A stretch of 64,000 nt of DNA from Nemertoderma westbladi (GCA_032718475.1 JAUCBJ010006518.1:10339-74338); one strand, 5' to 3'. Positions 12,001-56,522 are shown, counted from the first letter of the stretch. Numbers and translations: made by a program. Notes: a model not told the origin generated them from the sequence alone.

Positions 12001-15000
12001 GAATATATTGTTTATCCAAATACGTAGCTGCGCAACAATGCATTACATCTTTAATCATACTATTACGTAGCTATTCATACATTAATAAAATGGCCCAGAA
12101 TATGGTGTATTTATTTACATGATTGATTATTGGATGTTTTGTTTATACATCAGTTAATATATCGGCATTAGTTGTGTATATTCTATATATATATATATAT
12201 ATATATACTTTATTATATTGGTTTATTGTTTTAGTGGCTGCGGATCTTAATGAACAAATCGATAATCTAAGGAGGGCTAAAACGTCGTTAGAGAAATCAA
12301 AGCAAGCTTCTGAAAATGAGAGTAAGGAGCAAGGGAAAGAAATACAGGCGTTAATACAGGTAGGGAGCAAGGGAAAGAAATACAGGCGTTAATATAGGTA
12401 GGGAGCAAGGGAAAGAAATACAGGCGTTAATACAGATAGGGAGCAAGGGAAGGAAATACAGGCTTTAATACAGGTAGGGAGCAAGGGAAAGAAATACAGG
12501 CGTTAATACAGGTAGGGAGCAAGGGAAAGAAAGAAATACTGGCGTTAATACAGGTAGGGAGCAAGGGAAAGAAATACAGGCGTTAATACAGGTAGGGAGC
12601 AAGGGAAAGAAATACAGGCGTTAATACAGGTAGGGAGCAAGGGAAAGAAATACAGGCGTTAATACAGGTAGGGAGCAAGGGAAAGAAATACAGGCGTTAA
12701 TACAGGTAGGGAGCAAGGGAAAGAAATACAGGCTTTAATACAGGTAGGGAGCAAGGGAAAGAAATACAGGCGTTAATACAGGTAGGGAGCAAGGGAAAGA
12801 AAGAAATACTGGCGTTAATACAGGTAGGGAGCAAGGGAAAGAAATACAGGCGTTAATACAGGTAGGGAGCAAGGGAAAGAAATACAGGCGTTAATACAGG
12901 TAGGGAGCAAGGGAAAGAAATACAGGCGTTAATACAGGTAGGGAGCAAGGGAAAGAAATACAGGCGTTAATACAGGTAGGGAGCAAGGGAAAGAAATACA
13001 GGCGTTAATACAGGTAGGGAGCAAGGGAAAGAAATACAGGCGTTAATACAGGTAGGGAGCAAGGGAAAGAAATACAGGCGTTAATACAGGTAGGGAGCAA
13101 GGGAAAGAAATACAATACAAGCGTTAATACAGGTAGGGAGCAAGGGAAAGAAATACAGGCGTTAATACAGGTAGGGAGCAAGGGAAAGAAATACAGGCGT
13201 TAATACAGGTAGGGATGGAAGCAAGGGAAAGAAATACAGGCGTTAATACAGGTAGGGAGCAAGGGAAAGAAATACAGGCGTTAATACAGGTAGGGAGCAA
13301 GGGAAAGAAATACAGGCGTTAATACAGGTAGGGAGCAAGGGAAAGAAATACAGGCGTTAATACAGGTAGGGAGCAAGGGAAAGAAATACAGGCGTTAATA
13401 CAGGTACGGAGCAAGGGAAAGAAATACAGGCGTTAATACAGGTAGGGAGCAAGGGAAAGAAATACAGGCGTTAATACAGGTACGGAGCAAGGGAAAGAAA
13501 TACAGGCGTTAATACAGGTAGGGAGCAAGGGAAAGAAATACAAGCGTTAATACAGGTTGGGAGCAAGGGAAAGAAATACAGGCGTTAATACAGGTAGGGA
13601 GCAAAGGAAAGAAATACAGGCGTTAATACAGGTAGGGAGCAAGGGGAAGAAATACAGGCGTTGATACAGATAGGGAGCAAGGGAAAGAAATACAGGCGTT
13701 AATACAGGTAGGGAGCAAGGGAAAGAAATACAGGCGTTAATACAGGTAGGGAGCAAGGGAAAGAAATACAGGCGTTAATACAGGTAGGGAGCAAGGGGAA
13801 GAAATACAGGCGTTAATACAGGTTGGGAGCAAGGGAAAGAAATACAGGCGTTAATACAGGTAGGGAGCAAGGGGAAGAAATACAGGCGTTGATACAGGTA
13901 GGGAGCAAGGGAAAGAAATACAGGCGTTAATACAGGTAGGGAGCAAGGGAAAGAAATACAGGCGTTAATACAGGTAGGGAGCAAGGGAAAGAAATACAGG
14001 CGTTAATACAGGTAGGGAGCAAGGGAAAGAAATACAGGCGTTAATATAGGTAGGGAGCAAGGGAAAGAAATACAGGCGTTAATACAGGTAGGGTGCAAGG
14101 GAAAGAAATACAGGCGTTAATACAGGTAGGGAGCAAGGGAAAGAAATACAGGCGTTAATACAGGTAGGGAGCAAGGGGAAGAAATACAGGCGTTAATACA
14201 GGTTGGGAGCAAGGGAAAGAAATACAGGCGTTAATACAGGTAGGGAGCAAGGGGAAGAAATACAGGCGTTGATACAGATAGGGAGCAAGGGAAAGAAATA
14301 CAAGCGTTAATACAGGTAGGGAGCAAAGGAAAGAAATACAGGCGTTAATACAGGTAGGGAGCAAGGGGAAGAAATACAGGCGTTAATACAGGTTGGGAGC
14401 AAGGGAAAGAAATACAGGCGTTAATACAGGTAGGGAGCAAGGGGAAGAAATACAGGCGTTGATACAGATAGGGAGCAAGGGAAAGAAATACAAGCGTTAA
14501 TACAGGTAGGGAGCAAAGGAAAGAAATACAGGCGGTAATACAGGTAGGGAGCAAGGGGAAGAAATACAGGCGTTAATACAGGTTGGGAGCAAGGGAAAGA
14601 AATACAGGCGTTAATACAGGTAGGGAGCAAGGGAAAGAAATACAGGCGTTAATACAGGTAGGGAGCAAGGGAAAGAAATACAGGCGTTAATACAGGTAGG
14701 GAGCAAGGGAAATAAATATAGGCGTTAATACAGGTAGGGAGCAAAGGAAAGAAATACAGGCGTTAATACAGGTAGAGAGCAAGGGAAAGAAATACAGGCG
14801 TTGATACAGGTAGGGAGCAAGGGAAAGAAATACAGGCGTTAATACAGGTAGGGAGCAAGGGAAAGAAATACAGGCGTTAATACAGGTAGGGAGCAAGGGA
14901 AAGAAAAAATACAGGCGTTAATACAGGTAGGGATGGAAGCAAGGGAAAGAAATACAGCTGAGTTAATACAGGTAGGGAGCAAGGGAAAGAAATACAGGCG

Positions 15001-18000
15001 TTAATACAGGTAGGGAGCAAGGGAAAGAAATACAGGCGTTAATACAGGTAGGGAGCAAGGGAAAGAAATACAGGCGTTAATACAGGTAGGGAGCAAGGGA
15101 AAGAAAAAATACAGGCGTTAATACAGGTAGGGATGGAAGCAAGGGAAAGAAATACAGCTGAGTTAATACAGGTAGGGAGCAAGGGAAAGAAATACAGGCG
15201 TTAATACAGGTAGGGAGCAAGGGAAAGAAATACAGGCGTTAATACAGGTAGGGAGCAAGGGAAAGAAAAAATACAGGCGTTAATACAGGTAGGGAGCAAG
15301 GGAAAGAAATACAGGCGTTAATACAGGTAGGGAGCAAGGGAAAGAAAAAATACAGGCGTTAATACAGGTAGGGAGCAAAGGAAAGAAATACAGGCGTTAA
15401 TACAGGTAGGGAGCAAGAGAAAGAAATACAGGCGTTAATACAGGTAGGGAGCAAGGGAAAGAAAAAATACAGGCGTTAATACAGGTAGGGATGGAAGCAA
15501 GGGAAAGAAATACAGGAGTTAATACAGGTAGGGAGCAAGGGAGAGAAATACAGGCGTTAATACAGGTAGGGATCAAGGGAAAGAAATACAGGCGTTAATA
15601 CAGGTAGGGAGCAAGGGAAAGAAAAAATACAGGCGTTAATACAGGTAGGGATGGAAGCAAGGGAAAGAAATACAGGAGTTAATACAGGTAGGGAGCAAGG
15701 GAAAGAAATACAGGCGTTAATACAGGTAGGGAGCAAGGGAAAGAAATACAGGCGTTAATACAGGTAGGGAGCAAGGGAAAGAAAAAATACAGGCGTTAAT
15801 ACAGGTAGGGATGGAAGCAAGGGAAAGAAATACAGCAGTTAATACAGGTAGGGAGCAAGGGAAAGAAATACAGGCGTTAATACAGGTAGGGAGCAAGGGA
15901 AAGAAATACAGGCGTTAATACAGGTAGGGAGCAAGGGAAAGAAAAAATACAGGCGTTAATACAGGTAGGGAGCAAGGGAAAGAAATACAGGCGTTAATAC
16001 AGGTAGGGAGCAAGGGAAAGAAATACAGGCGTTAATACAGGTAGGGAGCAAGGGAAAGAAAAAATACAGGCGTTAATACAGGTAGGGATGGAAGCAAGGG
16101 AAAGAAATACAGGAGTTAATACAGGTAGGGAGCAAGGGAAAGAAATACAGGCGTTAATACAGGTAGGGAGCAAGGGAAAGAAATACAGGCGTTAATACAG
16201 GTACGGAGCAAGGGAAAGAAATACAGGCATTAATACAGGTAGGGAGCAAGGGAAAGAAATACAGGCGTTAATACAGGTACGGAGCAAGGGAAAGAAATAC
16301 AGGCGTTAATACAGGTAGGGAGCAAGGGAAAGAAATACAGGCGTTAATACAGGTAGGGAGCAAGGGAAAGAAATACAGGCGTTAATACAGGTAGGGAGCA
16401 AGGGAAAGAAAAAATACAGGCGTTAATACAGGTAGGGAGCAAGGTAAAGAAATACAGGCGTTAATACAGGTTGGGAGCAAGGGAAAGAAATACAGGCGTT
16501 AATACAGGTAGGGAGCAAGGGAAAGAAATACAGGCGTTAATACAGGTAGGGAGCAAGGGAAAGAAATACAAGCGTTAATACAGGTAGGGAGCAAGGGAAA
16601 GAAAAAATACAGGCGTTAATACAGGTAGGGATGGAAGCAAGGGAAAGAAATACAGGAGTTAATACAGGTAGGGAGCAAGGGAAAGAAATACAGGCGTTAA
16701 TACAGGTAGGGAGCAAGGGAAAGAAATACAGGCGTTAATACAGGTAGGGAGCAAGGGAAAGAAAAAATACAGGCGTTAATACAGGTAGGGAGCAAGGGAA
16801 AGAAATACAGGCGTTAATACAGGTAGGGAGCAAGGGAAAGAAAAAATACAGGCGTTAATACAGGTAGGGATGGAAGCAAGGGAAAGAAATACAGGAGTTA
16901 ATACAGGTAGGGAGCAAGGGAAAGAAATACAGGCGTTAATACAGGTAGGGAGCAAGGGAAAGAAATACAGGCGTTAATACAGGTAGGGAGCAAGGGAAAG
17001 AAATACAGGCGTTAATACAGGTAGGGAGCAAGGGAAAGAAAAAATACAGGCGTTAATACAGGTAGGGAGCAAGGGAAAGAAATACAGGCGTTAATACAGG
17101 TAGGGAGCAAGGGAAAGAAAAAATACAGGCGTTAATACAGGTAGGGAGCAAAGGAAAGAAATACAGGCGTTAATACAGGTAGGGAGCAAGGGAAAGAAAA
17201 AAGTACAGGCGTTAATACTGGTAGGGATGGAAGCAAGGGAAAGAAATACAGGAGTTAATACAGGTAGGGAGCAAGGGAAAGAAATACAGGAGTTAATACA
17301 GGTAGGAAGCAAGGGAAAGAAATACAGGCGTTAATACAGGTAGGGAGCAAGGGAAAGAAATACAGGCGTTAATACAGGTAGGGAGCAAGGGAAAGAAATA
17401 CAGGCGTTAATACAGGTAGGGAGCAAGGGAAAGAAATACAGGCGTTAATACAGGTAGGGAGCAAGGGAAATAAAAAATACAGGCGTTAATACAGGTAGGG
17501 AGCAAGGGAAGGAAAGAAATACAGGCGTTAATACAGGTAGGGAGCAAGGGAAAGAAATACAGGCGTTAATACAGGTAGGGAGCAAGGGAAAGAAAAAATA
17601 CAGGCGTTAATACAGGTAGGGAGCAAGGGAAAGAAAAAATACAGGCGTTAATACAGGTAGGGAGCAAGGGAAAGAAATACAGGCGTTAATACAGGTAGGG
17701 AGCAAGGGAAAGAAAAAATACAGGCGTTAATACAGGTAGGGAGCAAGGGAAAGAAATACAGGCGTTAATACAGGTAGGGAGCAAGGGAAAGAAAAAATAC
17801 AGGCGTTAATACAGGTAGGGAGCAAAGGAAAGAAATACAGGCGTTAATACAGGTAGGGAGCAAAGGAAAGAAATACAGGCGTTAATACAGGTAGGGAGCA
17901 AGGGAAAGAAAAAATACAGGCGTTAATACAGGTAGGGAGCAAGGGAAAGAAATACAGGCGTTAATACAGGTAGGGAGCAAGGGAAAGAAAAAATACAGGC

Positions 18001-21000
18001 GTTAATACAGGTAGGGAGCAAAGGAAAGAAATACAGGCGTTAATACAGGTAGGGAGCAAGGGAAAGAAAAAATACAGGCGTTAATACAGGTAGGGAGCAA
18101 GGGAAAGAAAAAATACAGGCGTTAATACAGGTAGGGAGCAAAGGAAAGAAATACAGGCGTTAATACAGGTAGGGAGCAAGGGAAAGAAATACAGGCGTTA
18201 ATACAGGTAGGGAGCAAGGGAAAGAAATACAGGCGTTAATACAGGTAGGGAGCAAGGGAAAGAAAAAATACAGGCGTTAATACAGGTAGGGAGCAAAGGA
18301 AAGAAATACAGGCGTTAATACAGGTAGGGAGCAAGGGAAAGAAAAAATACAGGCGTTAATACAGGTAGGGAGCAAAGGAAAGAAATACAGGCGTTAATAC
18401 AGGTAGGGAGCAAGGGAAAGAAATACAGGCGTTAATACAGGTAGGGAGCAAGGGAAAGAAATACAGGCGTTAATACAGGTAGGGAGCAAGGGAAAGAAAA
18501 AATACAGGCGTTAATACAGGTAGGGAGCAAAGGAAAGAAATACAGGCGTTAATACAGGTAGGGAGCAAGGGAAAGAAAAAATACAGGCGTTAATACAGGT
18601 AGGGAGCAAGAGAAAGAAATACAGGCGTTAATACAGGTAGGGAGCAAGAGAAAGAAATACAGGCGTTAATACAGGTAGGGAGCAAGGGAAAGAAAAAATA
18701 CAGGCGTTAATACAGGTAGGGAGCAAGGGAAAGAAATACAGGCGTTAATACAGGTAGGGAGCAAGGGAAAGAAAAAATACAGGCGTTAATACAGGTAGGG
18801 AGCAAAGGAAAGAAATACAGGCGTTAATACAGGTAGGGAGCAAGAGAAAGAAATACAGGCGTTAATACAGGTAGGGAGCAAGGGAAAGAAAAAATACAGG
18901 CGTTAATACAGGTAGGGATGGAAGCAAGGGAAAGAAATACAGGAGTTAATACAGGTAGGGAGCAAGGGAGAGAAATACAGGCGTTAATACAGGTAGGGAT
19001 CAAGGGAAAGAAATACAGGCGTTAATACAGGTAGGGAGCAAGGGAAAGAAAAAATACAGGCGTTAATACAGGTAGGGATGGAAGCAAGGGAAAGAAATAC
19101 AGGAGTTAATACAGGTAGGGAGCAAGGGAAAGAAATACAGGCGTTAATACAGGTAGGGAGCAAGGGAAAGAAATACAGGCGTTAATACAGGTAGGGAGCA
19201 AGGGAAAGAAAAAATACAGGCGTTAATACAGGTAGGGATGGAAGCAAGGGAAAGAAATACAGCAGTTAATACAGGTAGGGAGCAAGGGAAAGAAATACAG
19301 GCGTTAATACAGGTAGGGAGCAAGGGAAAGAAATACAGGCGTTAATACAGGTAGGGAGCAAGGGAAAGAAAAAATACAGGCGTTAATACAGGTAGGGAGC
19401 AAGGGAAAGAAATACAGGCGTTAATACAGGTAGGGAGCAAGGGAAAGAAATACAGGCGTTAATACAGGTAGGGAGCAAGGGAAAGAAAAAATACAGGCGT
19501 TAATACAGGTAGGGATGGAAGCAAGGGAAAGAAATACAGGAGTTAATACAGGTAGGGAGCAAGGGAAAGAAATACAGGCGTTAATACAGGTAGGGAGCAA
19601 GGGAAAGAAATACAGGCGTTAATACAGGTACGGAGCAAGGGAAAGAAATACAGGCATTAATACAGGTAGGGAGCAAGGGAAAGAAATACAGGCGTTAATA
19701 CAGGTACGGAGCAAGGGAAAGAAATACAGGCGTTAATACAGGTAGGGAGCAAGGGAAAGAAATACAGGCGTTAATACAGGTAGGGAGCAAGGGAAAGAAA
19801 TACAGGCGTTAATACAGGTAGGGAGCAAGGGAAAGAAAAAATACAGGCGTTAATACAGGTAGGGAGCAAGGTAAAGAAATACAGGCGTTAATACAGGTTG
19901 GGAGCAAGGGAAAGAAATACAGGCGTTAATACAGGTAGGGAGCAAGGGAAAGAAATACAGGCGTTAATACAGGTAGGGAGCAAGGGAAAGAAATACAGGC
20001 GTTAATACAGGTAGGGAGCAAGGGAAAGAAAAATACAGGCGTTAATACAGGTAGGGTGGAAGCAAGGGAAAGAAATACAGGAGTTAATACAGGTAGGGAG
20101 CAAGGGAAAGAAATACAGGCGTTAATACAGGTAGGGAGCAAGGGAAAGAAATACAGGCGTTAATACAGGTAGGGAGCAAGGGAAAGAAAAAATACAGGCG
20201 TTAATACAGGTAGGGAGCAAGGGAAAGAAATACAGGCGTTAATACAGGTAGGGAGCAAGGGAAAGAAAAAATACAGGCGTTAATACAGGTAGGGATGGAA
20301 GCAAGGGAAAGAAATACAGGAGTTAATACAGGTAGGGAGCAAGGGAAAGAAATACAGGCGTTAATACAGGTAGGGAGCAAGGGAAAGAAATACAGGCGTT
20401 AATACAGGTAGGGAGCAAGGGAAAGAAATACAGGCGTTAATACAGGTAGGGAGCAAGGGAAAGAAAAAATACAGGCGTTAATACAGGTAGGGAGCAAGGG
20501 AAAGAAATACAGGCGTTAATACAGGTAGGGAGCAAGGGAAAGAAAAAATACAGGCGTTAATACAGGTAGGGAGCAAGGGAAAGAAATACAGGCGTTAATA
20601 CAGGTAGGGAGCAAGGGAAAGAAAAAATACAGGCGTTAATACAGGTAGGGATGGAAGCAAGGGAAAGAAATACAGGAGTTAATACAGGTAGGGAGCAAGG
20701 GAAAGAAATACAGGAGTTAATACAGGTAGGGAGCAAGGGAAAGAAATACAGGCGTTAATACAGGTAGGGAGCAAGGGAAAGAAATACAGGCGTTAATACA
20801 GGTAGGGAGCAAGGGAAAGAAATACAGGCGTTAATACAGGTAGGGAGCAAGGGAAAGAAATACAGGCGTTAATACAGGTAGGGAGCAAGGGAAAGAAAAA
20901 TACAGGCGTTAATACAGGTAGGGAGCAAGGGAAGGAAAGAAATACAGGCGTTAATACAGGTAGGGAGCAAGGGAAAGAAATACAGGCGTTAATACAGGTA

Positions 21001-24000
21001 GGGAGCAAGGGAAAGAAAAATACAGGCGTTAATACAGGTAGGGAGCAAGGGAAAGAAAAATACAGGCGTTAATACAGGTAGGGAGCAAGGGAAAGAAATA
21101 CAGGCGTTAATACAGGTAGGGAGCAAGGGAAAGAAATACAGGCGTTAATACAGGTAGGGAGCAAGGGAAAGAAATACAGGCGTTAATACAGGTAGGGAGC
21201 AAGGGAAAGAAATACAGGCGTTAATACAGGTAGGGAGCAAGGGAAAGAAATACAGGCGTTAATACAGGTAGGGAGCAAGGGAAAGAAATACAGGCGTTAA
21301 TACAGGTAGGGAGCAAGGGAAAGAAATACAGGCGTTAATACAGGTAGGGAGCAAGGGAAAGAAATACAGGCGTTAATACAGGTAGGGAGCAAGGGAAAGA
21401 AATACAGGCGTTAATACAGGTAGGGAGCAAGGGAAAGAAATACAGGCGTTAATACAGGTAGGGAGCAAGGGAAAGAAATACAGGCGTTAATACAGGTAGG
21501 GAGCAAGGGAAAGAAAAATACAGGCGTTAATACAGGTAGGGAGCAAGGGAAAGAAATACAGGCGTTAATACAGGTAGGGAGCAAGGGAAAGAAATACAGG
21601 CGTTAATACAGGTAGGGAGCAAGGGAAAGAAATACAGGCGTTAATACAGGTAGGGAGCAAGGGAAAGAAATACAGGCGTTAATACAGGTAGGGAGCAAGG
21701 GAAAGAAATACAGGCGTTAATACAGGTAGGGAGCAAGGGAAAGAAATACAGGCGTTAATACAGGTAGGGAGCAAGGGAAAGAAATACAGGCGTTAATACA
21801 GGTAGGGAGCAAGGGAAAGAAATACAGGCGTTAATACAGGTAGGGAGCAAGGGAAAGAAATACAGGCGTTAATACAGGTAGGGAGCAAGGGAAAGAAATA
21901 CAGGCGTTAATACAGGTAGGGAGCAAGGGAAAGAAATACAGGCGTTAATACAGGTAGGGAGCAAGGGAAAGAAATACAGGCGTTAATACAGGTAGGGAGC
22001 AAGGGAAAGAAATACAGGCGTTAATACAGGTAGGGAGCAAGGGAAAGAAATACAGGCGTTAATACAGGTAGGGAGCAAGGGAAAGAAATACAGGCGTTAA
22101 TACAGGTAGGGAGCAAGGGAAAGAAATACAGGCGTTAATACAGGTAGGGAGCAAGGGAAAGAAATACAGGCGTTAATACAGGTAGGGAGCAAGGGAAAGA
22201 AATACAGGCGTTAATACAGGTAGGGAGCAAGGGAAAGAAATACAGGCGTTAATACAGGTAGGGAGCAAGGGAAAGAAATACAGGCGTTAATACAGGTAGG
22301 GAGCAAGGGAAAGAAATACAGGCGTTAATACAGGTAGGGAGCAAGGGAAAGAAATACAGGCGTTAATACAGGTAGGGAGCAAGGGAAAGAAATACAGGCG
22401 TTAATACAGGTAGGGAGCAAGGGAAAGAAATACAGGCGTTAATACAGGTAGGGAGCAAGGGAAAGAAATACAGGCGTTAATACAGGTAGGGAGCAAGGGA
22501 AAGAAATACAGGCGTTAATACAGGTAGGGAGCAAGGGAAAGAAATACAGGCGTTAATACAGGTAGGGAGCAAGGGAAAGAAATACAGGCGTTAATACAGG
22601 TAGGGAGCAAGGGAAAGAAATACAGGCGTTAATACAGGTAGGGAGCAAGGGAAAGAAATACAGGCGTTAATACAGGTAGGGAGCAAGGGAAAGAAATACA
22701 GGCGTTAATACAGGTAGGGAGCAAGGGAAAGAAATACAGGCGTTAATACAGGTAGGGAGCAAGGGAAAGAAATACAGGCGTTAATACAGGTAGGGAGCAA
22801 GGGAAAGAAATACAGGCGTTAATACAGGTAGGGAGCAAGGGGAAGAAATACAGGCGTTAATACAGGTTGGGAGCAAGGGAAAGAAATACAGGCGTTAATA
22901 CAGGTAGGGAGCAAGGGAAAGAAATACAGGCGTTAATACAGGTAGGGAGCAAGGGAAAGAAATACAGGCGTTAATACAGGTAGGGAGCAAGGGAAATAAA
23001 TATAGGCGTTAATACAGGTAGGGAGCAAAGGAAAGAAATACAGGCGTTAATACAGGTAGGGAGCAAGGGAAAGAAATACAGGCGTTGATACAGGTAGGGA
23101 GCAAGGGAAAGAAATACAGGCGTTAATACAGGTAGGGAGCAAGGGAAAGAAATACAGGCGTTAATACAGGTAGGGAGCAAGGGAAAGAAAAAATACAGGC
23201 GTTAATACAGGTAGGGATGGAAGCAAGGGAAAGAAATACAGCTGAGTTAATACAGGTAGGGAGCAAGGGAAAGAAATACAGGCGTTAATACAGGTAGGGA
23301 GCAAGGGAAAGAAATACAGGCGTTAATACAGGTAGGGAGCAAGGGAAAGAAATACAGGCGTTAATACAGGTAGGGAGCAAGGGAAAGAAATACAGGCGTT
23401 AATACAGGTAGGGAGCAAGGGAAAGAAATACAGGCGTTAATACAGGTAGGGAGCAAGGGAAAGAAATACAGGCGTTAATACAGGTAGGGAGCAAGGGAAA
23501 GAAATACAGGCGTTAATACAGGTAGGGAGCAAGGGAAAGAAAAAATACAGGCGTTAATACAGGTAGGGAGCAAGGGAAAGAAATACAGGCGTTAATACAG
23601 GTAGGGAGCAAGGGAAAGAAATACAGGCGTTAATACAGGTAGGGAGCAAGGGAAAGAAATACAGGCGTTAATACAGGTAGGGAGCAAGGGAAAGAAATAC
23701 AGGCGTTAATACAGGTAGGGATGGAAGCAAGGGAAAGAAATACAGGCGTTAATACAGGTAGGGAGCAAGGGAAAGAAATACAGGCGTTAATACAGGTAGG
23801 GAGCAAGGGAAAGAAATACAGGCGTTAATACAGGTAGGGAGCAAGGGAAAGAAATACAGGCGTTAATACAGGTAGGGAGCAAGGGAAAGAAATACAGGCG
23901 TTAATACAGGTAGGGAGCAAGGGAAAGAAATACAGGCGTTAATACAGGTAGGGAGCAAGGGAAAGAAATACAGGCGTTAATACAGGTAGGGAGCAAGGGA

Positions 24001-27000: not shown

Positions 27001-30000
27001 AGGCGTTAATACAGGTAGGGAGCAAGGGAAAGAAATACAGGCGTTAATACAGGTAGGGAGCAAGGGAAAGAAAAAATACAGGCGTTAATACAGGTAGGGA
27101 GCAAGGGAAAGAAATACAGGCGTTAATACAGGTAGGGAGCAAGGGAAAGAAATACAGGCGTTAATACAGGTAGGGAGCAAGGGAAAGAAATACAGGCGTT
27201 AATACAGGTAGGGAGCAAGGGAAAGAAATACAGGCGTTAATACAGGTAGGGAGCAAGGGAAAGAAATACAGGCGTTAATACAGGTAGGGAGCAAGGGAAA
27301 GAAATACAGGCGTTAATACAGGTAGGGAGCAAGGGAAAGAAATACAGGCGTTAATACAGGTAGGGAGCAAGGGAAAGAAATACAGGCGTTAATACAGGTA
27401 GGGAGCAAGGGAAAGAAATACAGGCGTTAATACAGGTAGGGAGCAAGGGAAAGAAATACAGGCGTTAATACAGGTAGGGAGCAAGGGAAAGAAATACAGG
27501 CGTTAATACAGGTAGGGAGCAAGGGAAAGAAATACAGGCGTTAATACAGGTAGGGAGCAAGGGAAAGAAATACAGGCGTTAATACAGGTAGGGAGCAAGG
27601 GAAAGAAATACAGGCGTTAATACAGGTAGGGAGCAAGGGAAAGAAATACAGGCGTTAATACAGGTAGGGAGCAAGGGAAAGAAATACAGGCGTTAATACA
27701 GGTAGGGAGCAAGGGAAAGAAATACAGGCGTTAATACAGGTAGGGAGCAAGGGAAAGAAATACAGGCGTTAATACAGGTAGGGAGCAAGGGAAAGAAATA
27801 CAGGCGTTAATACAGGTAGGGAGCAAGGGAAAGAAATACAGGCGTTAATACAGGTAGGGAGCAAGGGAAAGAAATACAGGCGTTAATACAGGTAGGGAGC
27901 AAGGGAAAGAAATACAGGCGTTAATACAGGTAGGGAGCAAGGGAAAGAAATACAGGCGTTAATACAGGTAGGGAGCAAGGGAAAGAAATACAGGCGTTAA
28001 TACAGGTAGGGAGCAAGGGAAAGAAATACAGGCGTTAATACAGGTAGGGAGCAAGGGAAAGAAATACAGGCGTTAATACAGGTAGGGAGCAAGGGAAAGA
28101 AATACAGGCGTTAATACAGGTAGGGAGCAAGGGAAAGAAATACAGGCGTTAATACAGGTAGGGAGCAAGGGAAAGAAATACAGGCGTTAATACAGGTAGG
28201 GAGCAAGGGAAAGAAATACAGGCGTTAATACAGGTAGGGAGCAAGGGAAAGAAAATACAGGCGTTAATACAGGTAGGGAGCAAGGGAAAGAAATACAGGC
28301 GTTAATACAGGTAGGGAGCAAGGGAAAGAAATACAGGCGTTAATACAGGTAGGGAGCAAGGGAAAGAAATACAGGCGTTAATACAGGTAGGGAGCAAGGG
28401 AAAGAAATACAGGCGTTAATACAGGTAGGGAGCAAGGGAAAGAAAATACAGGCGTTAATACAGGTAGGGAGCAAGGGAAAGAAATACAGGCGTTAATACA
28501 GGTAGGGAGCAAGGGAAAGAAATACAGGCGTTAATACAGGTAGGGAGCAAGGGAAAGAAATACAGGCGTTAATACAGGTAGGGAGCAAGGGAAAGAAATA
28601 CAGGCGTTAATACAGGTAGGGAGCAAGGGAAAGAAAAATACAGGCGTTAATACAGGTAGGGAGCAAGGGAAAGAAATACAGGCGTTAATACAGGTAGGGA
28701 GCAAGGGAAAGAAATACAGGCGTTAATACAGGTAGGGAGCAAGGGAAAGAAATACAGGCGTTAATACAGGTAGGGAGCAAGGGAAAGAAATACAGGCGTT
28801 AATACAGGTAGGGAGCAAGGGAAAGAAATACAGGCGTTAATACAGGTAGGGAGCAAGGGAAAGAAATACAGGCGTTAATACAGGTAGGGAGCAAGGGAAA
28901 GAAATACAGGCGTTAATACAGGTAGGGAGCAAGGGAAAGAAATACAGGCGTTAATACAGGTAGGGAGCAAGGGAAAGAAATACAGGCGTTAATACAGGTA
29001 GGGAGCAAGGGAAAGAAATACAGGCGTTAATACAGGTAGGGAGCAAGGGAAAGAAATACAGGCGTTAATACAGGTAGGGAGCAAGGGAAAGAAATACAGG
29101 CGTTAATACAGGTAGGGAGCAAGGGAAAGAAATACAGGCGTTAATACAGGTAGGGAGCAAGGGAAAGAAATACAGGCGTTAATACAGGTAGGGAGCAAGG
29201 GAAAGAAATACAGGCGTTAATACAGGTAGGGAGCAAGGGAAAGAAATACAGGCGTTAATACAGGTAGGGAGCAAGGGAAAGAAATACAGGCGTTAATACA
29301 GGTAGGGAGCAAGGGAAAGAAATACAGGCGTTAATACAGGTAGGGAGCAAGGGAAAGAAATACAGGCGTTAATACAGGTAGGGAGCAAGGGAAAGAAATA
29401 CAGGCGTTAATACAGGTAGGGAGCAAGGGAAAGAAATACAGGCGTTAATACAGGTAGGGAGCAAGGGAAAGAAATACAGGCGTTAATACAGGTAGGGAGC
29501 AAGGGAAAGAAATACAGGCGTTAATACAGGTAGGGAGCAAGGGAAAGAAATACAGGCGTTAATACAGGTAGGGAGCAAGGGAAAGAAATACAGGCGTTAA
29601 TACAGGTAGGGAGCAAGGGAAAGAAATACAGGCGTTAATACAGGTAGGGAGCAAGGGAAAGAAATACAGGCGTTAATACAGGTAGGGAGCAAGGGAAAGA
29701 AATACAGGCGTTAATACAGGTAGGGAGCAAGGGAAAGAAAAAATACAGGCGTTAATACAGGTAGGGAGCAAGGGAAAGAAATACAGGCGTTAATACAGGT
29801 AGGGAGCAAGGGAAAGAAAAAATACAGGCGTTAATACAGGTAGGGAGCAAGGGAAAGAAATACAGGCGTTAATACAGGTAGGGAGCAAGGGAAAGAAATA
29901 CAGGCGTTAATACAGGTAGGGAGCAAGGGAAAGAAATACAGGCGTTAATACAGGTAGGGAGCAAGGGAAAGAAAAAATACAGGCGTTAATACAGGTAGGG

Positions 30001-33000
30001 AGCAAGGGAAAGAAATACAGGCGTTAATACAGGTAGGGAGCAAGGGAAAGAAATACAGGCGTTAATACAGGTAGGGAGCAAGGGAAAGAAATACAGGCGT
30101 TAATACAGGTAGGGAGCAAGGGAAAGAAAATACAGGCGTTAATACAGGTAGGGAGCAAGGGAAAGAAATACAGGCGTTAATACAGGTAGGGAGCAAGGGA
30201 AAGAAATACAGGCGTTAATACAGGTAGGGAGCAAGGGAAAGAAATACAGGCGTTAATACAGGTAGGGAGCAAGGGAAAGAAATACAGGCGTTAATACAGG
30301 TAGGGAGCAAGGGAAAGAAATACAGGCGTTAATACAGGTAGGGAGCAAGGGAAAGAAATACAGGCGTTAATACAGGTAGGGAGCAAGGGAAAGAAATACA
30401 GGCGTTAATACAGGTAGGGAGCAAGGGAAAGAAATACAGGCGTTAATACAGGTAGGGAGCAAGGGAAAGAAATACAGGCGTTAATACAGGTAGGGAGCAA
30501 GGGAAAGAAATACAGGCGTTAATACAGGTAGGGAGCAAGGGAAAGAAATACAGGCGTTAATACAGGTAGGGAGCAAGGGAAAGAAATACAGGCGTTAATA
30601 CAGGTAGGGAGCAAGGGAAAGAAATACAGGCGTTAATACAGGTAGGGAGCAAGGGAAAGAAAAATACAGGCGTTAATACAGGTAGGGAGCAAGGGAAAGA
30701 AATACAGGCGTTAATACAGGTAGGGAGCAAGGGAAAGAAATACAGGCGTTAATACAGGTAGGGAGCAAGGGAAAGAAATACAGGCGTTAATACAGGTAGG
30801 GAGCAAGGGAAAGAAATACAGGCGTTAATACAGGTAGGGAGCAAGGGAAAGAAATACAGGCGTTAATACAGGTAGGGAGCAAGGGAAAGAAATACAGGCG
30901 TTAATACAGGTAGGGAGCAAGGGAAAGAAATACAGGCGTTAATACAGGTAGGGAGCAAGGGAAAGAAATACAGGCGTTAATACAGGTAGGGAGCAAGGGA
31001 AAGAAAAATACAGGCGTTAATACAGGTAGGGAGCAAGGGAAAGAAATACAGGCGTTAATACAGGTAGGGAGCAAGGGAAAGAAATACAGGCGTTAATACA
31101 GGTAGGGAGCAAGGGAAAGAAATACAGGCGTTAATACAGGTAGGGAGCAAGGGAAAGAAATACAGGCGTTAATACAGGTAGGGAGCAAGGGAAAGAAATA
31201 CAGGCGTTAATACAGGTAGGGAGCAAGGGAAAGAAATACAGGCGTTAATACAGGTAGGGAGCAAGGGAAAGAAATACAGGCGTTAATACAGGTAGGGAGC
31301 AAGGGAAAGAAAATACAGGCGTTAATACAGGTAGGGAGCAAGGGAAAGAAATACAGGCGTTAATACAGGTAGGGAGCAAGGGAAAGAAATACAGGCGTTA
31401 ATACAGGTAGGGAGCAAGGGAAAGAAATACAGGCGTTAATACAGGTAGGGAGCAAGGGAAAGAAATACAGGCGTTAATACAGGTAGGGAGCAAGGGAAAG
31501 AAATACAGGCGTTAATACAGGTAGGGAGCAAGGGAAAGAAATACAGGCGTTAATACAGGTAGGGAGCAAGGGAAAGAAATACAGGCGTTAATACAGGTAG
31601 GGAGCAAGGGAAAGAAATACAGGCGTTAATACAGGTAGGGAGCAAGGGAAAGAAATACAGGCGTTAATACAGGTAGGGAGCAAGGGAAAGAAATACAGGC
31701 GTTAATACAGGTAGGGAGCAAGGGAAAGAAATACAGGCGTTAATACAGGTAGGGAGCAAGGGAAAGAAATACAGGCGTTAATACAGGTAGGGAGCAAGGG
31801 AAAGAAATACAGGCGTTAATACAGGTAGGGAGCAAGGGAAAGAAATACAGGCGTTAATACAGGTAGGGAGCAAGGGAAAGAAATACAGGCGTTAATACAG
31901 GTAGGGAGCAAGGGAAAGAAATACAGGCGTTAATACAGGTAGGGAGCAAGGGAAAGAAATACAGGCGTTAATACAGGTAGGGAGCAAGGGAAAGAAAAAA
32001 TACAGGCGTTAATACAGGTAGGGAGCAAGGGAAAGAAATACAGGCGTTAATACAGGTAGGGAGCAAGGGAAAGAAAAAGTACAGGCGTTAATACAGGTAG
32101 GGAGCAAGGGAAAGAAAAAATACAGGCGTTAATACAGGTAGGGAGCAAGGGAAAGAAATACAGGCGTTAATACAGGTAGGGAGCAAGGGAAAGAAATACA
32201 GGCGTTAATACAGGTAGGGAGCAAGGGAAAGAAAAAAGTACAGGCGTTAATACAGGTAGGGAGCAAGGGAAAGAAAAAAGTACAGGCGTTAATACAGGTA
32301 GGGAGCAAGGGAAAGAAAAAAGTACAGGCGTTAATACAGGTAGGGAGCAAGGGAAAGAAAAAAGTACAGGCGTTAATACAGGTAGGGAGCAAGGGAAAGA
32401 AAAAGTACAGGCGTTAATACAGGTAGGGAGCAAGGGAAAGAAATACAGGCGTTAATACAGGTAGGGAGCAAGGGAAAGAAATACAGGCGTTAATACAGGT
32501 AGGGAGCAAGGGAAAGAAATACAGGCGTTAATACAGGTAGGGAGCAAGGGAAAGAAATACAGGCGTTAATACAGGTAGGGAGCAAGGGAAAGAAATACAG
32601 GCGTTAATACAGGTAGGGAGCAAGGGAAAGAAATACAGGCGTTAATACAGGTAGGGAGCAAGGGAAAGAAATACAGGCGTTAATACAGGTAGGGAGCAAG
32701 GGAAAGAAAAAAGTACAGGCGTTAATACAGGTAGGGAGCAAGGGAAAGAAATACAGGCGTTAATACAGGTAGGGAGCAAGGGAAAGAAATACAGGCGTTA
32801 ATACAGGTAGGGAGCAAGGGAAAGAAATACAGGCGTTAATACAGGTAGGGAGCAAGGGAAAGAAAAGTACAGGCGTTAATACAGGTAGGGAGCAAGGGAA
32901 AGAAAAAAGTACAGGCGTTAATACAGGTAGGGAGCAAGGGAAAGAAAATACAGGCGTTAATACAGGTAGGGAGCAAGGGAAAGAAAATACAGGCGTTAAT

Positions 33001-36000
33001 ACAGGTAGGGAGCAAGGGAAAGAAAAAATACAGGCGTTAATACAGGTAGGGAGCAAGGGAAAGAAATACAGGCGTTAATACAGGTAGGGAGCAAGGGAAA
33101 GAAATACAGGCGTTAATACAGGTAGGGAGCAAGGGAAAGAAATACAGGCGTTAATACAGGTAGGGAGCAAGGGAAAGAAATACAGGCGTTAATACAGGTA
33201 GGGAGCAAGGGAAAGAAATACAGGCGTTAATACAGGTAGGGAGCAAGGGAAAGAAAATACAGGCGTTAATACAGGTAGGGAGCAAGGGAAAGAAATACAG
33301 GCGTTAATACAGGTAGGGAGCAAGGGAAAGAAATACAGGCGTTAATACAGGTAGGGAGCAAGGGAAAGAAAAATACAGGCGTTAATACAGGTAGGGAGCA
33401 AGGGAAAGAAAGTACAGGCGTTAATACAGGTAGGGAGCAAGGGAAAGAAATACAGGCGTTAATACAGGTAGGGAGCAAGGGAAAGAAAATACAGGCGTTA
33501 ATACAGGTAGGGAGCAAGGGAAAGAAAAAAGTACAGGCGTTAATACAGGTAGGGAGCAAGGGAAAGAAATACAGGCGTTAATACAGGTAGGGAGCAAGGG
33601 AAAGAAATACAGGCGTTAATACAGGTAGGGAGCAAGGGAAAGAAATACAGGCGTTAATATAGGTAGGGAGCAAGGGAAAGAAATACAGGCGTTAATACAG
33701 GTAGGGAGCAAGGGAAAGAAATACAGGCGTTAATACAGGTTGGGAGCAAGGGAAAGAAATACAGGCGTTAATACAGGTAGGGAGCAAGGGAAAGAAATAC
33801 AGGCGTTAATACAGGTAGGGAGCAAGGGAAAGAAATACAGGCGTTAATACAGGTAGGGAGCAAGGGAAAGAAATACAGGCGTTAATACAGGTAGGGAGCA
33901 AGGGAAAGAAAAAGTACAGGCGTTAATACAGGTAGGGAGCAAGGGAAAGAAATACAGGCGTTAATACAGGTAGGGAGCAAGGGAAAGAAATACAGGCGTT
34001 AATACAGGTAGGGAGCAAGGGAAAGAAATACAGGCGTTAATACAGGTAGGGAGCAAGGGAAAGAAAGTACAGGCGTTAATACAGGTAGGGAGCAAGGGAA
34101 AGAAAAAGTACAGGCGTTAATACAGGTAGGGAGCAAGGGAAAGAAAAAAGTACAGGCGTTAATACAGGTAGGGAGCAAGGGAAAGAAATACAGGCGTTAA
34201 TACAGGTAGGGAGCAAGGGAAAGAAATACAGGCGTTAATACAGGTAGGGAGCAAGGGAAAGAAATACAGGCGTTAATATAGGTAGGGAGCAAGGGAAAGA
34301 AATACAGGCGTTAATACAGGTAGGGAGCAAGGGAAAGAAATACAGGCGTTAATACAGGTTGGGAGCAAGGGAAAGAAAAAATACAGGCGTTAATACAGGT
34401 AGGGAGCAAAGGAAAGAAATACAGGCGTTAATACAGGTAGGGAGCAAGGGAAAGAAATACAGGCGTTAATACAGGTAGGGAGCAAGGGAAAGAAATACAG
34501 GCGTTAATACAGGTAGGGAGCAAGGGAAAGAAAAAATACAGGCGTTAATACAGGTAGGGAGCAAAGGAAAGAAATACAGGCGTTAATACAGGTAGGGAGC
34601 AAGGGAAAGAAATACAGGCGTTAATACAGGTAGGGAGCAAGGGAAAGAAATACAGGCGTTAATATAGGTAGGGAGCAAGAGAAAGAAATACAGGCGTTAA
34701 TACAGGTAGGGAGCAAAGGTACAGGTAGGGAGCAAAGGAAAGAAATACAGGCGTTAATACAGGTAGGGAGCAAGAGAAAGAAATACAGGCGTTAATACAG
34801 GTAGGGAGCAAGGGAAAGAAATACAGGCGTTAATACAGGTAGGGAGCAAGGGAAAGAAAAAATACAGGCGTTAATACAGGTAGGGAGCAAAGGAAAGAAA
34901 TACAGGCGTTAATACAGGTAGGGAGCAAGGGAAAGAAAAAATACAGGCGTTAATACAGGTAGGGAGCAAGGTAAAGAAATACAGGCGTTAATACAGGTTG
35001 GGAGCAAGGGAAAGAAATACAGGCGTTAATACAGGTAGGGAGCAAGGGAAAGAAAAAAGTACAGGCGTTAATACAGGTAGGGAGCAAAGGAAAGAAATAC
35101 AGGCGTTAATACAGGTAGGGAGCAAGGGAAAGAAATACAGGCGTTAATACAGGTAGGGAGCAAGGGAAAGAAATACAGGCGTTAATATAGGTAGGGAGCA
35201 AGGGAAAGAAATACAGGCGTTAATACAGGTAGGGAGCAAGGGAAAGAAATACAGGCGTTAATACAGGTATAGGGAGCAAAGGAAAGAAATATAGGCGTTA
35301 ATACAGGTAGGGAGTAAGGGAAAGAAATACAGGCGTTAATACAGGTAGGGAGCAAGGGAAAGAAATACAGGCGTTGATACAGATAGGGAGCAAGGGAAGG
35401 AAAGAAATACAGGCGTTAATACAGGTAGGGAGCAAGGGAAAGAAATACAGGCGTTAATACAGGTAGGGAGCAAGGGAAAGAAATACAGGCGTTAATACAG
35501 GTAGGGAGCAAGGGAAAGAAATTCAGGCGTTAATACAGGTTGGGAGCAAGGGAAAGAAATACAGGCGTTAATACAGGTAGGGAGCAAGGAAAAGAAATAC
35601 AGGCGTTAATACAGGTAGGGAGCAAGGGAAGGAAAGAAATACAAGCGTTAATACAGGTAGGGAGCAAGGGAAAGAAATACAGGCGTTAATACAGGTAGGG
35701 AGCAAGGGAAAGAAATTCAGGCGTTAATACAGGTAGGGAGCAAGGGAAAGAAATACAGGCGTTAATACAGGTAGGGAGCAAGGGAAAGAAATACAGGCGT
35801 TAATACAGGTAGGGAGCAAGGGAAATAAATACAGGCGTTAATACAGGTAGGGAGCAAGGGAAGGAAAGAAATACAAGCGTTAATACAGGTAGGGAGCAAG
35901 GGAAAGAAATACAGGCGTTAATACAGGTAGGGAGCAAGGGAAAGAAATACAGGCGTTAATACAGGTAGGGAGCAAGGGAAATAAATACAGGCGTTAATAC

Positions 36001-39000
36001 AGGTAGGGAGCAAGGGAAGGAAAGAAATACAAGCGTTAATACAGGTAGGGAGCAAGGGAAAGAAATACAGGCGTTAATACAGGTAGGGAGCAAGGGAAAG
36101 AAATTCAGGCGTTAATACAGGTAGGGAGCAAGGGAAGGAAAGAAATACAGGCGTTAATACAGGTAGGGAGCAAGGGAAAGAAATACAGGCGTTAATACAG
36201 GTAGGGAGCAAGGGAAAGAAAAAATACAGGCGTTAATACAGGTAGGGATGGAAGCAAGGGAAAGAAATACAGGCGTTAATACAGGTAGGGAGCAAGGAAA
36301 AGAAATACAGGCGTTAATACAGGTAGGGATGGAAGCAAGGGAAAGAAATACAGGCGTTAATACAGGTAAGGAGCAAGGGAAAGAAAAAAGTACAGGCGTT
36401 AATACAGGTAGGGATGGAAGCAAGGGAAAGAAATACAGGCGTTAATACAGGTAGGGAGCAAGGAAAGAAATACAGGCGTTAATACAGGTAGGGATGGAAG
36501 CAAGGGAAAGAAATACAGGCGTTAATACAGGTAGGGATGGAAGCAAGGGAAAGAAATACAGGCGTTAATACAGGTAGGGAGCAAGGGAAAGAAAAAATAC
36601 AGGCGTTAATACAGGTAGGGAGCAAGGGAAAGAAATACAGGCGTTAATACAGGTAGGGAGCAAGGAAAAGAAATACAGGCGTTAATACAGGTAGGGATGG
36701 AAGCAAGGGAAAGAAATACAGGCGTTAATACAGGTAGGGAGCAAGGGAAAGAAATACAGGCGTTAATACAGGTAGGGAGCAAGGGAAAGAAAAAATACAG
36801 GCGTTAATACAGGTAGGGATGGAAGCAAGGGAAAGAAATACAGGCGTTAATACAGGTAGGGAGCAAGGGAAAGAAATACAGGCGTTAATACAGGTAGGGA
36901 TGGAAGCAAGGGAAAGAAATACAGGCGTTAATACAGGTAGGGATGGAAGCAAGGGAAAGAAATACAGGCGTTAATACAGGTAGGGAGCAAGGGAAAGAAA
37001 AAATACAGGCGTTAATACAGGTAGGGAGCAAGGGAAAGAAAAAATACAGGCGTTAATACAGGTAGGGAGCAAGGGAAAGAAATACAGGCGTTAATACAGG
37101 TAGGGAGCAAGGGAAAGAAATACAGGCGTTAATACAGGTAGGGAGCAAGGGAAAGAAATACAGGCGTTAATACAGGTAGGGAGCAAGGGAAAGAAATACA
37201 GGCGTTAATACAGGTAGGGAGCAAGGGAAAGAAATACAGGCGTTAATACAGGTAGGGAGCAAGGGAAAGAAATACAGGCGTTAATAGAGGTAGGGAGCAA
37301 GGGAAAGAAATACAGGCGTTAATACAGGTAGGGAGCAAGGGAAAGAAAAAAGTACAGGCGTTAATACAGGTAGGGATGGAAGCAAGGGAAAGAAATACAG
37401 GCGTTAATACAGGTAGGGATGGAAGCAAGGGAAAGAAATACAGGCGTTAATACAGGTAGGGAGCAAGGGAAAGAAATACAGGCGTTAATACAGGTAGGGA
37501 GCAAGGGAAAGAAATACAAGCGTTAATACAGGTAGGGAGCAAGGGAAAGAAAAAATACAGGCGTTAATACAGGTAGGGAGCAAGGGAAAGAAATATAGGC
37601 GTTAATACAGGTAGGGAGCAAGGGAAAGAAATACAGGCGTTAATACAGGTAGGGAGCAAGGGAAAGAAATACAGGCGTTGATACAGATAGGGAGCAAGGG
37701 AAAGAAATACAAGCGTTAATACAGGTAGGGAGCAAGGGAAAGAAAAAATACAGGCGTTAATACAGGTAGGGAGCAAGGGAAAGAAAAAATACAGGCGTTA
37801 ATACAGGTAGGGATGGAAGCAAGGGAAAGAAATACAGGCGTTAATACAGGTAGGGAGCAAGGGAAAGAAATACAGGCGTTAATACAGGTAGGGAGCAAGG
37901 GAAAGAAATACAAGCGTTAATACAGGTAGGGAGCAAGGGAAAGAAAAAATACAGGCGTTAATACAGGTAGGGAGCAAGGGAAAGAAATACAGGCGTTAAT
38001 ACAGGTTGGGGAGCAAGGGAAAGAAATACAGGCGTTAATACAGGTAGGGAGCAAGGGAAAGAAATACAGGCGTTAATACAGGTAGGGAGCAAGGGAAAGA
38101 AAAAATACAGGCGTTAATACAGGTAGGGATGGAAGCAAGGGAAAGAAATACAGGCGTTAATACAGGTAGGGAGCAAGGGAAAGAAATACAGGCGTTAATA
38201 CAGGTAGGGAGCAAGGGAAAGAAATACAAGCGTTAATACAGGTAGGGAGCAAGGGAAAGAAAAAATACAGGCGTTAATACAGGTAGGGAGCAAGGGAAAG
38301 AAATACAGGCGTTAATACAGGTTGGGAGCAAGGGAAAGAAATACAGGCGTTAATACAGGTAGGGAGCAAGGGAAAGAAATACAGGCGTTAATACAGGTAG
38401 GGAGCAAGGGAAGGAAAGAAATTCAGGCGTTAATACAGGTAGGGAGCAAGGGAAAGAAATACAGGCGTTAATACAGGTAGGGAGCAAGGGGAGGAAAAAA
38501 ATTCAGGCATTAATACATGGTACTAAGAAACAATAATGGTACTAACAAACAATAATGGTACTAACAAACAATAATGGTACTAACAAACAATAATGGTACT
38601 AACAAACAATAATGGTACTAATAAACAATAATGGTACTAATAAACAATAATGGTACTAACAAACAATAATGGTACTAATAAACAATAATGGTACTAACAA
38701 ACAATAATGGTACTAACAAACAAAAATGGTACTAACAAACAATAATGGTACTAACAAACAATAATGGTACTAACAAACAATAATGGTACTAATAAACAAT
38801 AATGGTACTAATAAACAATAATGGTACTAACAAACAATAATGGTACTAACAAACAATAATGGTACTAATAAACAATAATGGTACTAATAAACAATAATGG
38901 TACTAACAAACAATAATGGTACTAACAAACAATAATGGTACTAACAAACAATAATGGTACTAACAAACAATAATGGTACTAACAAACAATAATGGTACTA

Positions 39001-54700: not shown

Positions 54701-55976
54701 TATTTATTAGTCGAAAAATGTTAAATTTGTAGAGTTACAGTAGAAATATTGACGAATAAAAATACCAAATGTAGGCCTGCCGTATGCCATATTATTTTGT
54801 TAATGGCGCTACTTTCAAGTTTGATGCATGACGCTATGCTATATTAGTATTTGTGAAAACATTAATTATGCTTAAAATTATACCGTACCAGTAATAGAGT
54901 CCAGTCTAATATCAATTTATGTAGGCCTACGCGAAGAGAAGCCTACGCGTAGCTCATAATGTATTGAGACTATTTAAATAACTTAAGTTACTTCATACTA
55001 GTGTTTAAACGGGATCAGACTTTTCGGGATTTCCGGGATCGGGACCGGGATTACCACACTCGGGATCCAGATTTTCGTGTTCGGGATTGCAATTTTGAAT
55101 AAAAATATCTTAAAGTTTTCAGTATATTGCTGTGTTAGTTTAAAATGGGTTTTTGGCAAAATTATATCACTTTAAATCACACTGCTGAAATATTAATGGG
55201 AAAATTATTTATTCTACATATGTGATGCTGTATTTCAATGCTACCACCTTCCCCTTGCGTATTTGAAGCTTGTATTACTGTATTGGCTACAGTTGTACTG
55301 TAGTCGGGACATCGCTGGGAAAGGATTGCTATGTGAGAACTGTTGGTACATTTGCGGTTCAGTGACAAAAACCTATCCCCTATTCCCTGCCCTGTCGTCT
55401 ATTTCTAGGCCGATTGACACATATCAGTCATATGGGTAACTTTAAGAAAAATCCAAAATAGTGAATTTTCAACATCGATCATCATTACAGAAAATCATGA
55501 TTTTTTAATGGATTTTTTTGTTGAAATTACAATTTTTACTAGTTATCAAATTGCACAATTTCTTGAATTTTCCTGCAATTCGTCTGATTATCTATCTACA
55601 TACAGACACACCCTATGTTGGGTATATTTAATGAGGTGACAATTGTACGGTAAGACCATCCGATTTTACCTTTCACGCAGCACGTAAAAAAAAACGCGCA
55701 TACGTTTTCATTCATTCTTATCTTCTTGTCTTTTATAAGTACTGCAGGTCTACTGTACGACTACACTGTAAAACTGCACACTAATAGTCAAGGGATCCCT
55801 TGCGGATATTGGGATATTTATTGGTTTTGTCCACCCGTCTGCCCTTCAGTGTAACCCGTTCATTTACTAACCTGCATAATCCTCTTGCAACAATGGATAG
55901 CTTTCTGACTTTCGTTTAATGTTTTGGATTCATCCGCCTGGTTTAACGCTCATTTACCTACAGTACTACTATTTTA

Positions 55977-56522
55977 GTGTCAGGTGAGGACCTTCGAATA
56001 CGTAAGGGAAAGGCATGGGCAGCCTTGAATAGGCTTTCCAGGATTTGGAAGTCACCGAGAATTAATCGGAAACTTAAGGTCCGATTATTTAGAGCAGCAG
56101 TAGTTCCAGTACTCCTCTACGGGAGTCCATGCTGGGCTCTAACTGCTGAGGACACCAAATCTCTGGGTGGCACATTCACAAGAATGCTACACCGGGTTCA
56201 TTGTGTCAAGTACAATGCACACATCTACAACCAGACACTATATAACATTGGAGGTGTCTCATTGGTTCCCCCAAGCTTGACACTAGAACAAAATCGCCTC
56301 CGCTTTGCAGGACATTGCTTTCGCCGTGAGGACCAGCCAGTGCATAATCTTGTACTTTGGCAGCCTCATGGAGTGAATAAGCATGGTGGACAGCCCATGA
56401 CTTTCTTGAGACGCATCTTAAAGGACACTGGCCTTAAAGATTCGGATGATCTAGCAAATGTCATGGGTGATAGGGAGTTGTGGCGGTGCAATTTTGTTGA
56501 CAAGCCGGCACAGCATTCTTAA
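55977..56522 (+). mobile_element. 5'-truncated non-LTR retrotransposon (RTE-like), C-terminal post-RT region
   Basis: RKGKAWAALNRLSRIWKS...LKVRLFRAAVVPVLLYGSPCW...RLRFAGHCFR...DRELWR is typical of the RTE-clade ORF C-terminus. Confidence 0.85.

Follow-up and report, generated by a model that had tools for sequence, protein, structure and literature searches.

Analysis of a 64,000-nt stretch of the Nemertoderma westbladi genome (GCA_032718475.1 JAUCBJ010006518.1:10339-74338; hereafter the window, along which all positions are counted) revealed a gene, apparently for a non-muscle-myosin-II-like heavy chain, in which one intron is largely filled by tandem copies of a 38-bp unit that restate, copy after copy, the authentic 5' splice site (donor) of the preceding exon. 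This array is in all probability a minisatellite of the "mirage" type, although of very large size, in which only the most upstream donor (12359|12360) is predicted to be used, the ~670 others being silent passengers.

Tandem Repeats Finder reports a single array of period 38 at 12322-38497 (673.6 copies, 94% matches, 3% indels), and a wrap-around alignment to the consensus GTAGGGAGCAAGGGAAAGAAATACAGGCGTTAATACAG resolves 675 monomers in 12322-38511, of which 509 are 38 nt long, the remainder ranging from 19 to 45 nt. As many as 388 monomers are identical to the consensus; altogether there are 58 distinct monomer sequences, the most frequent variant (72 copies) carrying three additional A. Chance is of no concern for an array of 26 kb. 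Monomer 1 (12322-12359) coincides with the final 38 nt of the exon preceding the intron (exon A), where it encodes 13 residues, and is one base off the consensus (GTAAGG vs. GTAGGG), the last 34 nt of the exon matching unit positions 5-38; what has been amplified in tandem is therefore the end of the exon itself, and the array starts within the exon at 12322 and not, as a preliminary description of this locus had it, at 12326. The intronic part (12360..38511, + strand) comprises the other 674 monomers, or 26,152 bp, with joints that recreate the donor CAG|GTAGGG.

This exact form is found at 630 of the 674 monomer joints (the authentic donor counted), followed by CAG|GTTGGG (18), TAG|GTAGGG and CAG|ATAGGG (7 each), CAG|GTACGG (6) and six further forms seen once each. 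GT is kept at 667 joints and the juxtaposition AG|GT at 666, and each ...ACAG|GTAGGG joint restates the authentic donor, the identity extending over at least 34 nt on its upstream side. The preliminary description had counted ~680 identical splice donors, nearly all with the same CAG|GTAGGG and the same 34-nt exonic context in an AG/GT arrangement; the context and the arrangement agree with our results, whereas the count of identical donors is overstated: there are 674 joints, 630 of which carry the identical 9-mer, and the monomers behind them are not all alike. Its characterization of the unit as purine-rich and free of a polypyrimidine tract is likewise borne out (76% purine, longest pyrimidine run of 2), with a GC skew of ~+0.53 and an AT skew of ~+0.52 along the whole 26 kb. 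The array RNA is predicted to be nearly unstructured (-14 kcal/mol over 152 nt, z -2.65), and the donors are therefore expected to be exposed rather than masked.

The motor domain falls outside the window, and the identity of the gene (+ strand) rests on the rod, which appears to be that of a non-muscle-myosin-II-like heavy chain, with Myosin_tail_1 matches at 45554-45937 (E 4.7e-43) and 47255-47596 (E 7.4e-32). As the reference for exon alignment we used P0004, a 1,966-aa myosin found with the exon at 45554-45937; the top search match, P0001 (1,205 aa, internally repeated myosin segments), proved of no use for this purpose. Fourteen exon pieces, from position 4 to 48094, align in order to P0004 residues 991-1929. 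Those relevant here, all on the + strand, are exon 2 (589-996; P0004 residues 1015-1150 by tblastn), exon 3, which precedes exon A (1389..1560; residues 1147-1203), exon A itself (12235..12359, 125 nt; P0004 residues 1205-1245 and, in PDB, Myosin-9 residues 1200-1238) and exon B (41391..41590, 200 nt, donor CAC|GTTAGT; P0004 residues 1246-1313 and, in PDB, Myosin-11 residues 1252-1309). An exon B search for longer homologous proteins returned 105 candidates, none with E <= 0.001.

The position of the true splice follows from this alignment. The best-scoring junctions of exon A are the acceptor TTTTAG|TGG and the donor CAG|GTAGGG, the latter being ordinary for the gene (GTAGGN at 4 of 13 donors). 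Exons 3, A and B are collinear with P0004 and gapless at both joints, and 12359->41391 is the top in-frame GT..AG pair (score 154 vs. 136 and 123, all pairs <=90 nt from the exon cores being considered). Protein collinearity thus requires the splice 12359->41391, and the product from the first donor would read ...GAGAGTAAGGAGC...ACAG|GATAAAAG. The whole array would be intronic if AGA|GTAAGG at 12321|12322 served as the donor, but this possibility was dismissed, since the reading frame does not then continue at 41391 and 13 collinear residues are lost. In the frame of exon A the intron reaches a stop codon (TAA at 12390-12392), and the conserved protein can therefore be obtained only from the first donor, as the preliminary description had proposed. 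With the border so fixed by protein collinearity, the first monomer sits at the exon-intron border, the array continues from there into the intron, and the authentic splice-site sequence is reiterated through it, which is the arrangement that characterizes the mirage class.

Contigs from several sequencing runs bear on the expression of the gene. No run is recorded as RNA; one of them (X5, labelled "DNA?") behaves as RNA when placed on 11700-12440. A spliced X5 contig of 3,793 nt covers exon A (12235-12350), and X5 depth is zero in the intron directly upstream (12125-12224). Of the X5 loose ends, one in front of 12235 matches the final 30 nt of exon 3 exactly, and one after 12360 gives precisely the beginning of exon B, whose first 30 nt follow on ...ACAG. 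From these exon joints it follows that the gene is expressed and that a donor lying in the ...TTAATACAG context is spliced to 41391; transcription, on which the ideas of the preliminary description depended, is thereby supported. Words of the 38-mer array are also present in X5.

The host intron (12360-41390) measures 29,031 bp, of which 90.1% belongs to the 38-mer array, matching the earlier estimate of ~90%, the remainder consisting of a 19-mer array (2,483 bp) and 396 bp of unique sequence. The 19-mer array (AATAATGGTACTAACAAAC, 130 copies, 38512..40994, +) adjoins the degenerate 38-mer copies that end at 38511, and contains 89 exact copies of TACTAAC, the optimal branch-site motif, along with 113 GGTAC and just 12 AG in 2,483 nt. 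This TACTAAC-rich array, which fills most of the remaining intron, had been passed over in the preliminary description. The sole unique part of the intron (40995..41390, +, 396 nt) provides the real polypyrimidine tract and acceptor (..TACTTTTTACCATAG|GAT). The other eleven complete introns in the window are 89-1,109 nt long, except one of 10,674 nt that also contains arrays, and we infer that the ancestral host intron was of ~400 nt. The 19-mer array likely marks its start and may represent an older donor-side array; one rotation of the 19-mer, GGTACTAAC..., begins where the ancestral intron would have begun. Directly after the last 19-mer copies there is a T-rich tract (TTTTATTTATTTATTTT) at 40995-41026, with the first AG at 41025-41026 (CATTAG), which resembles a cryptic 3' splice site 365 nt ahead of the real one; the X5 contig shows 41391 in use.

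The 38-bp array likely arose by replication slippage, presumably between the GTA at 12322 and the GTA opening the old intron, because the last 38-mer copy reads ...ATACATGGTACTAAG; subsequent growth would have proceeded by unequal exchange. The 33 monomers at 15248-16545, of which 20 deviate from the consensus, reappear without change 3,427 bp further on, at 18675-19972, and two shorter blocks, of 18 and 12 monomers, have their duplicates 10,278 bp away. Up to 34 consensus monomers follow one another uninterrupted; the copies at either end of the array are diverged. Recurring variant blocks are what unequal exchange is expected to produce, and they argue against a trivial assembly stutter, without proving the array length. 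The choice of the first donor may be made by exon definition or by 5'->3' commitment, as has been experimentally shown for human F7 IVS7 (intervening sequence 7; see below). With stepwise removal unlikely and the donors unmasked, first-donor selection would therefore have to rest on position. Transcripts spliced from later copies would be removed by nonsense-mediated decay because of the TAA at 12390-12392, and the array as a whole would be without a selected function. A comparison of unit positions over the 509 monomers of 38 nt gave no signal for or against selection on the donor GT (G1 varies in 6, T2 in 0, other positions in 0-25), this comparison being weak as the monomers are not independent of one another.

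The myosin array belongs to a class of junction-spanning minisatellites that has already been described in other animals. Its closest counterpart is the 37-bp minisatellite of human F7 IVS7, of which the first monomer spans the border of exon 7 and is followed by 4-8 pseudo-donors identical to the authentic one; in fifty constructs reported by Borensztajn et al. (2006, PMC1557585) the pseudo-sites proved functional and the most upstream site was selected. The same report lists border-spanning first monomers in IFI6 (6-16; 25 pseudo-sites), CBS IVS13, LMNB2 and PDGF, and for F7 IVS7 and four other human genes it describes use as confined to the most upstream one to three donors. As far as that account goes, the two arrays share the border-spanning first monomer, the identical pseudo-donors, the premature stops reached from later donors and a nearly equal unit size (37 bp vs. 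38 bp). They differ in copy number (5-9 in F7 and up to ~25 in other genes of that paper vs. 675 here) and in the placement of the border within the unit, of which 4 nt are exonic and 33 nt intronic in F7, whereas 34-38 of 38 nt are exonic in the myosin unit; sole use of the first site is experimental in F7 and is predicted for the myosin array. The preliminary description had asked whether the donors were decoys or ratchets, and its decoy alternative fits this precedent of pseudo-sites that are functional yet silent.

Other relatives extend the comparison, each within the limits of the published description. In amphioxus, mirage minisatellites are found in Adh3 and in the globins BflGb6 and BflGb9, with several in one gene, units of 10-72 bp in Adh3 and no disturbance of splicing (Ebner et al., 2010, PMC3087553); border-spanning short-unit repeats, their presence several times in one gene, unequal exchange and diverged edge copies are common to them and to the myosin gene, but the amphioxus arrays have few copies (3-6 in BflGb6) and lie at both donor and acceptor borders. 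In human ABCA7 intron 18 a variable number tandem repeat of 25 bp starts at the donor GT, and low-level use of the donor in the second unit shifts the frame and leads to a premature stop (De Roeck et al., 2018, PMC5954066). That long and variable array likewise opens with the GT of the authentic donor; it differs in being C-rich and intronic except for the GT, with a reference allele of 592 bp (23.7 units), and both disease risk and skipping of the following exon are correlated with its length, nothing of the kind being known for the myosin array. The gigantic introns of the Drosophila Y-linked genes kl-3 and kl-5 (PMC6508621) have likewise been inflated many-fold by tandem repeats and are still transcribed and spliced, in that case with megabases of simple satellites unrelated to splice sites and a dedicated expression program, in contrast to 26 kb derived from an exon's end.

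Two further donor-spanning arrays were found in the same gene. The first is a 15-mer repeated 3.6 times (979..1032, +), with 6 exonic and 9 intronic nt per unit and the authentic donor GAG|GTTAGT at 984|985; among its later copies, GT is lost in one and kept in one at 1029|1030. The 45 nt up to the latter GT, in the fourth 15-mer, are in frame and stop-free, and its use would add 15 coiled-coil residues. The second is a 63-mer repeated 8.2 times (44923..45435, +), with 54 exonic and 9 intronic nt per unit and the authentic donor AAT|GTAGGT at 44976|44977, so that eight donors are present in total, seven of them pseudo-donors behind the authentic one. Two of these pseudo-donors, at 45228|45229 and 45291|45292, read AAG|GTAGGT and are nearer to the consensus than the authentic AAT|GTAGGT, and the 63-mer array as a whole reiterates a 17-residue peptide. 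In the window, 3 of the 13 donors and none of the 13 acceptors are thus spanned by arrays, and for at least three of the gene's eleven arrays to cover a donor we estimate P ~0.007 (uniform seeding over an array-collapsed 13.6 kb; a rough and post hoc figure). The impression of a special and unusual device conveyed by the preliminary description is weakened by these two arrays and by the existence of a described class; the size of the 38-bp array stays exceptional.

Several considerations weigh against first-donor use in an otherwise passive array. Among competing strong donors the one nearest to the acceptor can win, which would be fatal here, and should acceptor-nearest donors otherwise win, an unusually firm early donor commitment would be needed. 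The rule established for F7 was shown for 5-9 copies in mammalian cells, as compared with 674 copies over 26 kb in the present case. The contigs were built from 31-letter words, the 34 nt common to all copies are longer than that, and two X5 records fit two places; the X5 contigs fit donor use from any copy, not specifically from the first, and may leave room for low-level use of later donors or for intermediates. The array length is known from one assembly. The excess of donor-spanning arrays, finally, hints at a bias or a filter beyond simple neutrality; such a filter may operate if a duplicated donor border is harmless wherever the first donor wins, duplicated exon interiors and acceptors being harmful.

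Of the alternative explanations, the least improbable concerns the assembly rather than the biology: the array itself would be real, and either its length would be an artifact, in whole or in part, or a dispersed 38-mer satellite would have been misplaced into this intron. It draws on the single assembly, on the blocks repeated at 3.4 and 10.3 kb, which could in principle be false duplications, and on the inability of contigs made of 31-letter words to span the array. A satellite misplaced from elsewhere is hard to reconcile with a unit that is this exon's own end, and hence with an array born here; a 170-nt DNA contig from run X1 (12219-12355) passes from the sequence upstream into the array with zero mismatches. 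Two DNA studies (X1/X3 and X2) contain array words, with a summed depth that is high but stands for neither copy number nor expression level, and X1 may be the source sample. The 58 variants, together with identical runs of up to 34 monomers, resemble a natural satellite. Taken together, we regard an artifact of this kind as unlikely. A metagenome scan with the 33-nt unit joint gave 0 matches. Just 5' of exon A, at ~11725-12100, thousands of diverged DNA contigs are placed with a very high summed depth in X1-X3 and with many joints and loose ends, and this stretch is likely a high-copy interspersed repeat.

A second alternative assigns a function to the RNA, in which ~667 U1-type donors and 89 TACTAAC would soak up U1 small nuclear ribonucleoprotein (snRNP) and SF1/U2, or would slow or gate myosin expression, the gating being effected by R-loops on the purine-rich strand or simply by transcription time. 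The donors are of ordinary strength for the gene and are not hidden by structure, the strand asymmetry and the purine content persist over 26 kb, array words occur in the RNA-like run X5, and the TACTAAC array directly adjoins the donor array, all of which is compatible with such a role. On the other hand, the donor positions give no evidence of selection, a single intron is a small sink relative to the cellular U1 pool, and 29 kb costs only minutes at usual elongation rates. Low-copy arrays of this type are present at two other donors of the gene, and junction arrays are also reported from unrelated genes and animals (PMC1557585, PMC3087553); this recurrence at other donors, in other genes and in other animals therefore points to a mutational by-product. 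A functional RNA is accordingly considered quite improbable, and our doubts are just as strong about the extreme version of the idea, in which an essential cytoskeletal gene tolerates 673 full-context donor copies followed by 89 perfect TACTAAC and in which, given error-free use of the first donor, the array RNA might act as a powerful natural trap for U1 and SF1/U2 or else, being prone to R-loops, as a brake whose length tunes myosin II output.

The least credible alternative, recursive splicing, according to which every AG|GT joint is a zero-length exon and removal of the intron proceeds in many steps, each regenerating the donor, is considered very unlikely. AG|GT is indeed found at 666 of 674 joints, and the ratchet points described from Drosophila and human share this donor-regenerating juxtaposition of acceptor and donor sites in long introns (PMC8605326, bioRxiv 10.1101/006163). 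The acceptor half of the myosin unit is poor, with 6 pyrimidines in the 20 nt before its AG, as compared with 10-17 (median 13) in the gene's 13 real acceptors, a longest pyrimidine run of 2, and six AG per 38-nt unit at a spacing of <=12 nt, whereas the real acceptors here are preceded by 20-120 AG-free nt. A ratchet point has a polypyrimidine tract and an AG-free stretch behind the branch point; the 38-mer falls short of a working 3' splice site in both its pyrimidines and its AG spacing, and steps of 38 nt are below a workable intron length. Moreover, ratchets are unneeded for an array that expanded an intron formerly of ~400 nt, and unlike the ratchet points so far described, the sites here lie 38 nt apart and are of recent origin rather than a conserved single site. 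Recursive splicing, raised in the preliminary description as the counterpart of the decoy alternative, is thus unsupported.

The window holds further repeats and open frames. A 48-mer repeated 82.6 times (4169-8149) lies within the 10.7-kb intron 3 and reads donor-like on the minus strand (CAAG|GTAGGTGAGG); a comparison of this array with the exon ends of the gene revealed no similarity (best score 7). A 24-mer repeated 58.5 times (ACTAACCACACTAGCTATGCTACC, 49221-50618) lies 3' of the final myosin exon identified; its period keeps several frames open on either strand. Farther downstream, a 488-aa open frame (59714-61180, +) encodes C2H2 zinc fingers (zf-C2H2, E 1.9e-32) behind ten coding copies of a 39-nt repeat (60119-60514), a 221-aa open frame (62131-62796, +) has a methyltransferase domain (Methyltransf_31, E 1.1e-20), and the frame 55947-56522 has only a sub-threshold match to DUF6451.

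Overall, the traits by which the myosin array stands out within its class are its 675 copies over 26 kb, the nearly all-exonic unit, the essential host gene and the adjoining TACTAAC-rich array. For annotation it is also a caution that satellites can arise from the end of an exon and lead gene finders and assemblers astray. Donor-reiterating minisatellites are the cleanest natural test of how the spliceosome chooses among identical sites; the cases studied so far have 5-25 copies, and the myosin locus adds 674 joints over 26 kb, plus two small arrays, in a gene that is hardly dispensable. Error-free use of the first donor would imply that, in this animal, 5' splice-site commitment precedes any effect of the decoys, and exclusive use of it would widen the "most upstream wins" rule by two orders of magnitude and carry it to an animal outside the mammals; if its use is not exclusive, the locus would reveal how much mis-splicing such a gene tolerates.

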